A stretch of 64,000 nt of DNA. Origin: Selenomonadaceae bacterium. GTDB lineage: Bacteria; Vulcanimicrobiota; Xenobia; Xenobiales; JADMJV01. The position numbers and the translations under genes were made by a program. The notes beneath the pieces are model-generated. The model ran no database searches. It was not told the DNA's origin and worked only from the letters and a program-made list of their open reading frames with translations. Numbering within the stretch: position 1 is the stretch's first letter; every line of letters starts with the position of its first letter. This document shows, one piece after another, positions 3,635 through 23,341 of this stretch. The stretch lies in contig JBBCJA010000018.1 of NCBI GenBank assembly GCA_037189585.1, forward strand, positions 887 to 64,886, written 5' to 3'.

Positions 3635-5413
3635 GTGTTCGTGACCATTCAGCCCAGCATCCAGGCCACCCGCGCCGTTGCCCCCAACACCGTTCGAGAA
3701 AAAGCCGATAACTGCGGCTGCCCTCATAGCGCGGAGTCCGTGGCCTCGCCCAGCGAAAGCTTTGTCCCCTCGGCCCAGAGCGCCAAGGCCGCTCCCGCTA
3801 GTGACGTCGTGGTCTCGAGCGCTTCGGAGAAAACAGCCGAGCTCCAAGCCCCTCAAGATGGTGAGAAAACCGTTCAGGTTTCGGTCTATCAGCAGGACCC
3901 CTTCGTGGCCAAGCCTATCTTGCTTGAAGTTCCTCAAAACGAAATCGGCTCGAACCTCTCCAGCCCTCGCGTGGTCACCAAGGACAACCGCCCCCTGGCC
4001 AAGCCCGATGCCAACGGCAACTACATTTTGGCGGACCTTTCCGACGGAATCGCCCAAACCAACGCCCACGTGATCACCAACGAGACTCTTCAACTGTTCG
4101 AAGGCTACAAGGGTGGAGAGATCAACTGGGCTTCCGGCAAACAGCTTTCCGTCACCCCTCACAAACAGGAAGGTCGTAACGCCTACTACTCCCGCTGGGG
4201 CGGAACCAACTACTTCTACAGCGAGTCGAAGGGTCTGGGCCACACCATGAAGACGGCCAATTCAACGGACGTGGTCTCTCACGAGACCGGACACGCTCTG
4301 CTCGACGGAATCCGTCCAGGCTTTTTCTCCACCCACGACGACGAGACCGGCGCTTTCCACGAAGCCTTCGGTGATTGCGCGGCGATCTTGTTCGGCCTGA
4401 CCCAGAAGGCCAATCGCGACAAGTTCATCGAGCAGACCGGAGGCGACACCACCAAGCACAACGTCTTCTCCTCGCTTGCCGAAGAGTTCGGCGCGGCCCG
4501 TGTGTTAGACAACGACGACCCATCAGATGACCACAAGACCTGGCTTCGCACCACGCAGACCAGCTTCACCTATGTTCCTCCGTCCAAGCTTCCCGACGGA
4601 CGTGGTAGCGAGACCGAGCTCGGTCGCGAGGTGCACTCTTTCTCGCGCCTCTTCTCCTCGGCTTTCTACGACTCGGTCGTGGCGGTCTACAACCAGGCCC
4701 TCGGCGAAGGCAAGTCGATCGACGAGGCTCTGGTCACGGCCGAGCAGATCAACGGGCCGGCCCTGCTTCGCGCCATCGAGTCCGGCTCGCCCAACCGCGC
4801 GACCTTCAAAGCTATCGCGCTGGGAATGGTCGCGGCCGACAAGGCCAACGGCGGGAAATACGCCGACGGAATGGCTCAAGCGTTCATCAACCGCAAGATC
4901 ATCACCGCCGCCGACATCAAGGCTGCCGAGGAAGAAGCCGCTCAACTGCCCGACGTACGCCTGCCCGAAGGACTGAGCAAGGCCAACGCGGTCAACTTCC
5001 TGGAGGCCAATGCCGAAGCGCTGGGTCTATCGGCCGACATCCCCTTCGTTCCTGAGAACGTTTCCAGAAACGGCAAAGGCGAGACCTTCGTCTCCTTCCG
5101 CTACAGCCAGGAAGTGCCCGTGACTGTGGCCGGCTTGGAGGGCAAAGTCACCGATGTCCAAGGTGGATTGAACCTGACCTTCGACGCCAACGGGAAACTG
5201 ATCGGACGCGCCTTCGATCAGATCACCGGCGACACGGTAGAGCGCGAGATGCAGGGAATCGCCAACATGCAAGCTCGCAACGCCATCGTGGACAAAGAGG
5301 CCGTGGGTCTGTTCAAGAACGGCGGCAACGAGAACCTGTTCAAGTCGGCCATCGAGGGGAACAAGATCGTTCGCCTCCCGATCTCCGGCTGCGACCACGA
5401 GCACCACCACTAA
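3635..5413 (+). CDS. Zinc metalloprotease (HExxH zincin) with disordered Ser/Ala-rich N-terminal region and His-rich C-terminus; GTG start
   Basis: HETGHALLDG motif with downstream EAFGD. RBS caggag before GTG. Ends ...CDHEHHH. Followed by a hairpin terminator. Confidence 0.65.
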   Translation: MFVTIQPSIQATRAVAPNTVREKADNCGCPHSAESVASPSESFVPSAQSAKAAPASDVVVSSASEKTAELQAPQDGEKTVQVSVYQQDPFVAKPILLEVPQNEIGSNLSSPRVVTKDNRPLAKPDANGNYILADLSDGIAQTNAHVITNETLQLFEGYKGGEINWASGKQLSVTPHKQEGRNAYYSRWGGTNYFYSESKGLGHTMKTANSTDVVSHETGHALLDGIRPGFFSTHDDETGAFHEAFGDCAAILFGLTQKANRDKFIEQTGGDTTKHNVFSSLAEEFGAARVLDNDDPSDDHKTWLRTTQTSFTYVPPSKLPDGRGSETELGREVHSFSRLFSSAFYDSVVAVYNQALGEGKSIDEALVTAEQINGPALLRAIESGSPNRATFKAIALGMVAADKANGGKYADGMAQAFINRKIITAADIKAAEEEAAQLPDVRLPEGLSKANAVNFLEANAEALGLSADIPFVPENVSRNGKGETFVSFRYSQEVPVTVAGLEGKVTDVQGGLNLTFDANGKLIGRAFDQITGDTVEREMQGIANMQARNAIVDKEAVGLFKNGGNENLFKSAIEGNKIVRLPISGCDHEHHH

Positions 5414-5441
5414 AAGTCACACTCTTTGAGTGCTCGCGAAG

Positions 5442-5470
5442 GCCTCCCGAATCGGGAGGCTTTTTTCATG
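5442..5470 (+). terminator. Rho-independent terminator
   Basis: GGCCTCCCGAATCGGGAGGC hairpin followed by TTTTTT. Confidence 0.6.
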
Positions 5471-5536
5471 CCCGAAGGGCTTGCAAAACATGATTTCGAT
5501 GTGCTAACTTTAGCACTCGTAAGCAGTCTTCCCGGC

Positions 5537-5611
5537 CGGGGTATAGCTCAGCTTGGTTAGAGTGCTTGCTTAGGGAGCAAGAGGTCCCCAGTTCGAATCT
5601 GGGTACTCCGA
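5537..5611 (+). tRNA. tRNA-Pro with apparent anticodon AGG (A34); CCA not encoded
   Basis: Manual cloverleaf. Acceptor CGGGGTA/TACTCCG (C1-G72) with A73 discriminator, typical of bacterial tRNA-Pro. D-stem GCTC/GAGT. Anticodon stem CTTGC/GCAAG with loop TTAGGGA (U33, anticodon AGG, G37). T-arm CCCAG-TTCGAAT-CTGGG. Confidence 0.8.
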
Positions 5612-5685
5612 TTCTTTTAGGCGAAAACTGCTTACGAAGGGAGACGGTGATTCGTCTCCTTTTTCATTTAGGAAGGGGAGGCGAC

Positions 5686-6141
5686 ATGGAAAAAGTCACC
5701 AACATCGAGCAGTATCTCAACCTATTGGTCTACGTGATCCGAGCCGACGGTATCGTCGATGACCAGGAGATTGGACAGCTTCAGGTCCTCCTCCGCTCTC
5801 GCTGCCCCGAGCCCCTCTCCGATGAAGAGCTTCAACAGATCGCGATGCGACTGACCGCCGAGGGTTCGATCAAGGCGACCGACGATGAACTGGTCAAGGC
5901 AGGCTACGGAATCGATGACCACACCCTCATGCTTTTGGTCCGTGACGCCTATTCATTGGCCGCTTCCGATGGTGAGGTGGACGGCTCGGAGATCCAGACC
6001 CTACGCCGCTTCCTACGGCTGCATGGGGTCCCGGTCGAAAGATTCGCCAACATCGATCTGTGGGCGCGCAATCCAGAGGCCGACCTGGAGATCGGGGTCG
6101 CCCTTCTCAGTCCGGCGAAACCCGCCAATCCAACGCCGTGA
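5686..6141 (+). CDS. TerB-like domain protein
   Basis: GGAGG RBS before ATG at 5686. ADG-V-D-EI / SDGEVDGSEI pattern resembles the TerB family. The ORF-table N-extension overlaps the tRNA and is rejected. Confidence 0.45.
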   Translation: MEKVTNIEQYLNLLVYVIRADGIVDDQEIGQLQVLLRSRCPEPLSDEELQQIAMRLTAEGSIKATDDELVKAGYGIDDHTLMLLVRDAYSLAASDGEVDGSEIQTLRRFLRLHGVPVERFANIDLWARNPEADLEIGVALLSPAKPANPTP

Positions 6142-21583: not shown

Positions 21584-21625
21584 ATCGCCCTAAAAATTTG
21601 GTTCGTCTCGAACGCGACCCAACCT

Positions 21626-21715
21626 GAAAAGCTTACATACTAGCTCATCGGTAGAGCGCTCCACACCTAACGGAACGGTTGCGGGTTCGATTCCCGCGTG
21701 TAATCAAAGCTTTTC
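21626..21715 (+). ncRNA. tRNA-like structured RNA element B (candidate Y-RNA-like) closed by a long terminal stem
   Basis: Canonical D-arm TAGCTCATCGGTAGAGC and T-arm GCGGG-TTCGATT-CCCGC. Degenerate anticodon arm. Ends pair as AAAAGCTT-ACAT / GTGT-(AATC)-AAGCTTTT. Confidence 0.4.
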
Positions 21716-21802
21716 TAACTCGCGCGTTCGAAACGAATCTCTAAAGTTGTTGGTCGTCGCGACCTCATCGTGAGAACTTACACACGGATTCCATCCACTT
21801 GA

Positions 21803-23341
<1,539 letters not shown>

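Follow-up and report, generated by a model that had tools for sequence, protein, structure and literature searches.

A conserved tRNA-Pro(AGG) gene with genome-encoded wobble adenosine in a small clade of Vulcanimicrobiota

Wobble adenosine in bacterial tRNAs

Of the four bases, adenosine is the one least often found at the wobble position of bacterial tRNAs, and the reason for its avoidance has been a long-standing question. In a survey of 319 genus representatives, nearly all ANN tRNAs except ACG were absent from all or most genomes (PMC4041420). As of 2021, bacterial inosine at position 34 (I34) had been reported on tRNA-Arg and rarely on tRNA-Leu (PMC8266599), and non-Arg tRNAs with A34 have been described for Leu, Thr and Ser (PMC8007984, PMC8072771, PMC11472039, PMC13249217). 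The subject of this study is a tRNA-Pro gene with the anticodon AGG, carried on a 64-kb stretch of DNA with 58% G+C (hereafter the window). It belongs to the genomic class of non-Arg A34 tRNAs of bacteria, having A34 in a four-codon-box tRNA that is fixed in its lineage (11 of 11 copies). The literature searched contained nothing specific on a natural bacterial tRNA-Pro(AGG) or tRNA-Pro(IGG), and within that literature this is the first documentable case of tRNA-Pro(AGG) in Vulcanimicrobiota.

The tRNA-Leu(AAG) of Lactobacillales, which becomes IAG in Oenococcus oeni, Streptococcus pyogenes and other streptococci, resembles the window tRNA in that it has A34 and serves a four-codon box other than that of Arg (PMC11472039, PMC13249217). 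It replaces its G34 isoacceptor clade-wide, and positions 35 and 37 set its loop apart from that of Arg(ACG), as seen in S. pyogenes (PMC11472039) and as also holds for the window tRNA. The S. pyogenes TadA, unlike that of E. coli, is adapted to this tRNA-Leu(AAG) (PMC11472039). The two cases differ at position 35, which is A in the Lactobacillales tRNA and G in the window tRNA, and it is for Leu only that I34 and an adapted TadA are experimental findings.

The same anticodon as in the window has been studied in two laboratory constructs, both in Enterobacteria, whereas the window tRNA is a natural, clade-fixed gene. A G34A mutant of the Salmonella tRNA-Pro(GGG), in the account of Chen 2002 given by PMC3711424, was not deaminated and came close to the wild type in its reading of CCC. 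The second construct is an orthogonal M. jannaschii tRNA placed in E. coli. Here, the E. coli TadA edited an AUG anticodon to about 50% and AAG to about 15%, did not detectably deaminate AGG, and lost its activity on AAG altogether when A37 was changed to G (PMC11066159). G35 was not accepted by E. coli TadA (PMC11066159), and variant TadAs are known to accept A35 (PMC11472039). The unmodified AGG tRNA read CCU and CCC in a ratio of 56:44, with CCA and CCG at about 1% each (PMC11066159).

Natural tRNAs with an unmodified A34 also exist. Mycoplasma capricolum has such a tRNA-Thr(AGU) (PMC3711424), and O. oeni has two, for Thr (AGU) and Ser (AGA); both contain G35 and stay unmodified, although I34 is present on the A34 tRNAs of this species for Arg and Leu (PMC8072771). 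These tRNAs share with the window tRNA a natural A34, a family box and G35 (PMC3711424, PMC8072771). They differ from it at position 36, which is U or A against G36 in the window tRNA, and their hosts are AT-rich Firmicutes or Mollicutes, in contrast to the G+C content of the window. G36 belongs to the UACG motif of TadA.

A last parallel comes from eukaryotes, in which tRNA-Pro(AGG) is converted to IGG by ADAT2/ADAT3. The anticodon and the replaced G34 isoacceptor resemble what is proposed for the window, but the window tRNA keeps the bacterial C1-G72 pair. To our knowledge, no enzyme of the ADAT2/ADAT3 type occurs in bacteria. ADAT2/ADAT3 is a heterodimer with relaxed sequence specificity (PMC9643335).

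Against this background, the window gene offers a natural, clade-wide fixed A34 in a poorly known phylum, and it does so in the proline box, the one codon box in which laboratory work had already shown that an unmodified A34 works.

The tRNA-Pro(AGG) gene, its clade and its occurrence elsewhere

The features of the locus, all on the forward (+) strand of the window, are as follows.

3635-5413, +: gene for a 592-aa protein without a Pfam match; its orthologue lies directly 5' of the tRNA in all relatives
5438-5466, +: intrinsic-terminator-like hairpin with a U-run closing the 592-aa gene, GAAGGCCUCCCGAAUCGGGAGGCUUUUUU (from folding)
5481-5510, +: promoter-like motif (from sequence reading and conservation)
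5537-5611, +: tRNA-Pro gene, anticodon AGG, 75 nt (ARAGORN; Rfam RF00005), with the minihelix CUUGCUUAGGGAGCAAG
5570-5576, +: anticodon loop, U32 U33 A34 G35 G36 G37 A38 (sequence reading)
5572-5574, +: anticodon, A34 G35 G36, with A34 at base 5572 (sequence, ARAGORN and Rfam)
5636-5665, +: intrinsic-terminator-like hairpin (GGGAGACG/CGUCUCC) followed by UUUUU, 25 nt past the tRNA 3' end (from folding)
5686-6141, +: gene for a TerB-domain protein of 151 aa, used as the handle for fetching relatives

ARAGORN called a tRNA-Pro with the anticodon agg at exactly 5537-5611(+), its sole tRNA call within the 64-kb window, and Rfam gave a full-length match of its model RF00005 to these 75 nt, with a score of 61.3 bits against a gathering score of 29 (E = 7.7e-11). 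The sequence, CGGGGTATAGCTCAGCTTGGTTAGAGTGCTTGCTTAGGGAGCAAGAGGTCCCCAGTTCGAATCTGGGTACTCCGA, has the canonical tRNA shape, with stems of 7, 4, 5 and 5 bp, a 7-nt anticodon loop, U33, G18G19 and the T-loop UUCGAAU. The pairs of the cloverleaf are standard throughout (21/21), a G4-U69 wobble in the acceptor stem included, and the gene is without an encoded CCA end. The full set of ProRS identity elements is present (G35, G36, A73 and G72, the last in the bacterial C1-G72 pair), along with G37 for TrmD. In structure and identity elements, the gene is thus that of a bacterial elongator tRNA-Pro. The sequence-only reading from which this work started had described a clean cloverleaf with proline identity elements (C1-G72, A73, G37) and an AGG anticodon in a TTAGGGA loop, and both descriptions were borne out, the anticodon by ARAGORN and Rfam alike. 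In the Rfam alignment, the anticodon arm reads CUUGC-UUAGGGA-GCAAG, and since the perfect 5-bp stem CUUGC/GCAAG fixes the loop, a single register is possible, with A34 at base 5572. A different register or anticodon, for instance one giving GGG or UGG, which that reading had named as a way to be wrong, was rejected on the agreement of ARAGORN and Infernal together with this stem.

The gene looks like a monocistronic unit, because it has a promoter-like block of its own and terminators on both sides, and its expression is suggested by the promoter-like motif and the terminator. The upstream hairpin at 5438-5466 (-19.3 kcal/mol, z = -4.83, with 0 of 200 shuffles as stable) recurs with its T-run at the same place in most relatives and is the putative 5' boundary of the tRNA transcription unit. 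The promoter-like motif is made up of a -35 element TTGCAA (5481-5486), an 18-nt spacer ending in TGc (5502-5504) and a -10 element TAACTT (5505-5510), an arrangement of the extended -10 type that ends about 26 nt before the mature 5' end of the tRNA. Across nine loci, TTGC(A/G) and, 18 nt further on, TRTGMTARNTT were the sole conserved blocks of the upstream flank, which is otherwise 47-66% identical. The downstream hairpin at 5636-5665 (-16.7 kcal/mol, z = -4.23, again 0 of 200 shuffles) is retained with other loop bases in L074, a relative introduced below. A consensus promoter and terminator scanner applied to 5200-5900 reported neither the promoter-like motif nor either hairpin terminator. 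Its negatives are unreliable in this genome, where it missed two strong hairpin-plus-U-run terminators upheld by folding; the assignment of the motif and the hairpins is based on direct reading, folding and conservation.

The TerB gene starts 75 nt downstream of the tRNA, and relatives of the locus were gathered through its homologues. These numbered 14 proteins with 51-91% identity, and contigs were taken for six of them, giving ten loci. Every one of the ten had a tRNA-Pro(agg) inside the gap of about 300 nt between the gene for the ~590-aa protein and TerB. A Logan contig (L001) with an identical TerB copy matches the window at 100% over 11.2 kb. The same arrangement was found separately, by a scan of genome collections, in a MAG titled "Vulcanimicrobiota bacterium" (L074, JAEXNA010000251.1); in the genes around the tRNA, its coding DNA shares about 70-76% with that of the window. 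This MAG, along with the source names "Vulcanimicrobiota", "Candidatus Xenobium" and "Eremiobacteraeota" on homologues of a neighbouring ATPase, puts the window in the Vulcanimicrobiota. Altogether, the syntenic tRNA-Pro(AGG) was seen in 11 independently assembled contigs from different samples, drawn from Logan, ENA, JGI and NCBI and representing about seven lineages.

A34 is present in all 11 sequences, and the tRNA is 97-100% identical across the syntenic copies, in contrast to flanks that share only 47-66% (140 nt upstream) and 29-59% (110 nt downstream) with the window. The sole variable site among the 11 tRNAs is the pair 7:66, where the window and L124 have A-U and the others G-C, so that the change A7-U66 <-> G7-C66 reads as compensatory. 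A test for covariation on the 11-sequence alignment found this one event, with 137 of 500 shuffles scoring as high, which is not significant alone, and the argument for the reality of the gene therefore rests on an invariant tRNA set against diverged flanks. Near-identity of the tRNA beside flanks at 29-66%, with the compensatory change at 7:66, indicates purifying selection, and the sequence comparison supports conservation of tRNA-Pro(AGG) throughout a small clade of the Vulcanimicrobiota, a phylum formerly called Eremiobacterota/WPS-2.

The clade that has the AGG gene at this site appears to be shallow, since its ATPase is at least 83% identical inside the clade and synteny is gone at 71-43%. 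Divergence within the clade is much greater for TerB and the intergenic DNA than for the ATPase. Outgroups reached through the HATPase_c_3 neighbour (71%, 58%, 47% and 43% identity) had lost synteny and had no tRNA within 10 kb. No integrase or other sign of an island was seen beside the window tRNA, and its neighbours are syntenic across the clade. As a separate observation, the gene for the ~590-aa protein, single in the window, is tandemly duplicated in the lineage of the Vulcanimicrobiota MAG (3942-5401 and 5812-7400 in L074; 6016-7758 and 7928-9697 in L128); the protein, which has no Pfam match, ends in a His-rich tail (…CDHEHHH).

A search of JGI metagenomes for versions of the window tRNA with any base at position 34 gave two matches and no GGG version. 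The first match, at 965-1042 of L122, is a tRNA-Pro(CGG) that agrees with the window tRNA at every base of the anticodon arm, variable loop and T arm but differs from it in the acceptor and D arms; the second, around 1858-1893 of L123, resembles tRNA-Pro(UGG) but comprises its 3' two-thirds only, has no tRNA call and is possibly a remnant of an integration site. Being an unrelated CGG gene and a 3' UGG fragment, they were set aside as uninformative on the ancestral state. A phage origin was rejected: six matches to the A34 pattern were found in viral contigs, none of them like the window tRNA. Five of the six were tRNA-Pro(AGG) of the Lachnospiraceae type, one of which is cut at the contig end, and the sixth (L134) lacks the acceptor end of a tRNA-Pro.

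How widely tRNA-Pro(AGG) occurs was assessed by scanning one genome per GTDB species with the pattern TTAGGGA-N6-GGTC-N5-TTCGAATC, which returned at least 120 loci. Among the 120 pattern matches listed, ARAGORN called at least 119 tRNA-Pro(agg) genes in at least 117 loci. By record title, at least 74 loci belong to Lachnospiraceae and other Clostridia (many of them Acetatifactor), at least 37 to Cytophagales and other Bacteroidota, at least three to Succinivibrionaceae/Enterobacterales, and at least one each to Puniceicoccales, Vulcanimicrobiota and an unclassified bacterium. ARAGORN made no such call in three of the listed matches, from Prochlorococcus (L023), a Myxococcales MAG (L026) and a Planctomycetia MAG (L117). 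The last of these is a fragment, with a 3' half resembling tRNA-Pro(AGG) and a 5' half of unrelated sequence.

The sequence-only reading had held that A34 is essentially restricted to tRNA-Arg(ACG). This is correct for most bacteria, but tRNA-Pro(AGG) emerged as a recurrent exception (at least 117 loci), rare overall yet fixed in clades, and the literature greatly understates how common it is in uncultured Lachnospiraceae and Cytophagales. The tRNAs of Lachnospiraceae (Acetatifactor), Cytophagales (e.g., Chryseolinea, Cyclobacteriaceae), Succinivibrionaceae and Puniceicoccales share with the window tRNA the loop UUAGGGA, C1-G72 with A73 and the overall cloverleaf, and those of Clostridia also share the acceptor stem CGGGGUG/CACUCCG with its G4-U69. 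They belong to other phyla and, among the matches listed, are 64-81% identical to the window tRNA, and for these reasons A34 probably arose independently in the window clade. The literature searched contained no experimental study of these tRNAs from other phyla. Cultured members of the Lachnospiraceae and Cytophagales (e.g., Acetatifactor muris, Chryseolinea lacunae and Dawidia soli) would be easier organisms in which to take up the question of A34.

Adenosine or inosine at position 34

The 43 long ORFs of the window contain 1046 proline codons, of which 37% are CCC, 32% CCG, 20% CCU and 11% CCA, making CCC the commonest and CCC with CCU, the pyrimidine-ending pair served by a G34, A34 or I34 tRNA, 57% of the total. 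All four CCN codons specify proline, and because of this either A34 or I34 could operate without miscoding. By analogy with the tRNAs described above, tRNA-Pro(AGG) probably reads CCU and CCC. The codon usage of the window gave no signal to separate I34 from A34, as the C:U ratio of 1.8 for proline and the 11% of CCA are both in line with other family boxes.

The reading we favour, at what we judge to be an even balance of probability, is that of an unmodified A34 tRNA-Pro that has replaced the usual G34 isoacceptor. The gene would encode a functional, separately transcribed elongator tRNA with a genome-encoded A34, which in this small clade of Vulcanimicrobiota would hold the place of tRNA-Pro(GGG) as the reader of CCU and CCC. 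We infer that the genomes of the clade lack a GGG gene and that A34 most likely stays adenosine. The identity elements recognized by ProRS (G72, A73, G35 and G36, as for E. coli ProRS) exclude base 34, so that normal charging would be expected. TrmD methylates G37 and has G36-G37 as its motif; since this motif is present, the tRNA would be expected to carry m1G37. In the G/C-rich CCN box, an unmodified A34 would pair with U by Watson-Crick geometry and also accept C.

Precedent speaks for this reading. The bacterial A34 tRNAs with G35 that have been tested so far are all unmodified, and the unmodified proline form is a competent reader of CCY, from which repeated fixation of a G34-to-A34 change in the proline box can be understood. 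The recurrent, independent appearance of tRNA-Pro(AGG) in several phyla fits such a low-cost change. The sequence-only reading had concluded that A34 implies either I34 made by a TadA of expanded specificity or an unusual decoding of CCU. An expanded TadA is not implied, as the unmodified AGG tRNA in E. coli is not deaminated by TadA and still reads CCU and CCC at 56:44 (PMC11066159); the reading of CCU by A34 is ordinary. By these analogies, ordinary reading of CCU and CCC by an unmodified A34 is at least as likely as I34.

Two points count against an unmodified A34. If A34 and G34 were equivalent, toggling between them would be expected, and A34 is invariant in 11 of 11 copies; this is weak counter-evidence, because nearly the whole tRNA is invariant. 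In addition, the precedents all come from organisms whose TadA had no cause to adapt, whereas the TadA of Lactobacillales did adapt to a tRNA-Leu(AAG) whose loop departs from that of tRNA-Arg(ACG) at 35 and 37, as the window tRNA does (PMC11472039).

This leads to the second reading, which we consider a real if tentative possibility, in which a TadA widened from UACG to UAGG loops converts A34 to inosine and the resulting tRNA-Pro(IGG) reads CCU, CCC and CCA, as in eukaryotes. The proline loop retains U33, A34, G36 and A38 of the canonical Arg loop and differs from it at 32, 35 and 37, and CCC, with which inosine pairs well, is the commonest proline codon. The strict retention of A34 in about seven lineages, and the fixation of tRNA-Pro(AGG) in large clades elsewhere, would fit a locked-in modification. 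The usual bacterial reader of CGA is tRNA-Arg(ICG), and as CGA makes up 17% of the Arg codons in the window ORFs, a working TadA in this organism is suggested. The adaptation of the S. pyogenes TadA to Leu(AAG) and the I34 on the O. oeni tRNA-Leu(AAG) provide a natural precedent for widening (PMC11472039, PMC8072771).

Inosine is opposed by the loop itself, U33-A34-G35-G36-G37, which departs from the TadA motif U33-A34-C35-G36 in having G35 for C35. The G35-bearing bacterial A34 tRNAs tested so far all proved unmodified (PMC11066159, PMC8072771 and PMC3711424, the last in part by way of its account of Chen 2002). Reports of bacterial I34 have been confined to Arg and, rarely, Leu (PMC8266599), and a bacterial tRNA-Pro(IGG) is absent from the literature searched. 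A tblastn search with E. coli TadA found no TadA gene in the window or in the fetched loci of the clade. Elsewhere, a TadA homologue about 44% identical to that of E. coli lies about 2.0-2.3 kb from tRNA-Pro(AGG) in two Lachnospiraceae MAGs (L072, 3898-4362; L110, 2991-3467). These are two of the 74 listed Clostridia loci, and the proximity may be coincidence; the two TadA sequences are natural candidates in which to look for a widened specificity.

The two readings carry different consequences. Unmodified, the tRNA would work like the Salmonella G34A tRNA-Pro; edited, it would work like eukaryotic tRNA-Pro(IGG) and the tRNA-Leu(IAG) of Lactobacillales. Were A34 unmodified, the clade would prove from nature that a four-codon box can be served by A34, and this would argue that miscoding or cross-reaction with TadA, rather than decoding ability, lies behind its avoidance elsewhere. 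Were it I34, bacterial TadA would have a natural substrate range beyond the one now known, a point of relevance to how eukaryotic ADAT arose and to base editors derived from TadA. It is conceivable, though we would lean against it, that TadA has been widened to G35 loops in the window clade, and perhaps in the Lachnospiraceae and Cytophagales clades too, making tRNA-Pro(IGG) a third class of bacterial I34 after Arg and Leu. Such an enzyme would be a natural intermediate on the path completed by eukaryotic ADAT2/3, and TadA variants of novel sequence preference could be drawn from it.

A third explanation, which we regard as improbable, is that the AGG tRNA is an auxiliary or redundant isoacceptor and that a tRNA-Pro(GGG) elsewhere, a UGG tRNA reading all four codons, or both, does the main work; its contribution would then be a mere boost to CCU reading or some specialised, possibly non-translational role. 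The window has one tRNA, the wider tRNA set of the organism lying beyond it, and in many bacteria a modified UGG tRNA suffices for the whole CCN box, with B. subtilis mo5UGG reading CCC according to Yamada 2005 as referenced in PMC6063277. However, near-perfect conservation between flanks at 29-66%, along with a promoter-like motif and a terminator of its own, speaks of strong selection that would be unusual for a redundant gene. Moreover, the 117 listed AGG loci of other taxa, each a stretch of at most 8 kb, contain no Pro(GGG) gene (0/117) and no other ANN tRNA, although CGG or UGG genes sometimes adjoin the AGG gene. Lastly, an artefact, either a tRNA-Pro(GGG) misread as AGG through a G>A error of sequencing or assembly, the sequencing error being one that the sequence-only reading had allowed for, or a decaying pseudogene copy, can be dismissed with near certainty, as no supporting point was found for it in this analysis and it is contradicted by the identical A34 in 11 assemblies made independently from samples of various origins and taken from several sources, the intact cloverleaf with its compensatory change and the high Rfam score.

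A tRNA-like element beside a Ro60-like gene

A second locus of the window, at 21.6-23.3 kb, came to attention through a weak match to the Rfam tRNA model at 21634-21703(+), which scored 33.8 bits and was without an ARAGORN call. This element has perfect D and T arms but defects in the acceptor and anticodon stems, and it lies (region 21600-21740, +) inside two long-range helices, GAAAAGCUU/AAGCUUUUC and GGUUCGUCUCGAACGCG/CGCGCGUUCGAAACGAAUC, and a 156-nt region around it folds at -50.7 kcal/mol (z = -4.59). Bacterial Y RNAs of the YrlA type combine a Ro-binding stem, formed from both RNA ends, with a tRNA-like domain, and are encoded beside rsr (PMC4201824). By this analogy, the element is likely a YrlA-type Y RNA; the Rfam Y RNA families gave no match at 21600-21740, and the exact motif GNCGAAN0-1G was not seen there.

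About 100-170 nt downstream of the tRNA-like region, depending on the start codon, begins an ORF (21803 or 21875 to 23341, +) for a protein of 488-512 aa. Pfam gave weak VWA matches only and no TROVE match for this protein. Identity between its family and cyanobacterial "vWA domain-containing proteins" of about 477 aa is 62-65%, which is unusually high across phyla. In the AlphaFold2 model of the protein (pLDDT 71.5), helical repeats take up about 290 aa and a VWA domain comes after them, and the 13 best full-length PDB matches of the model are all Ro60, Rsr or TROVE structures (E 1e-9 to 3e-7; TM 0.43-0.49). Because a YrlA-like architecture (PMC4201824) adjoins a protein with a Ro60-like model, this locus, which Pfam and Rfam had missed, probably represents a divergent Ro60 orthologue with a Y RNA.
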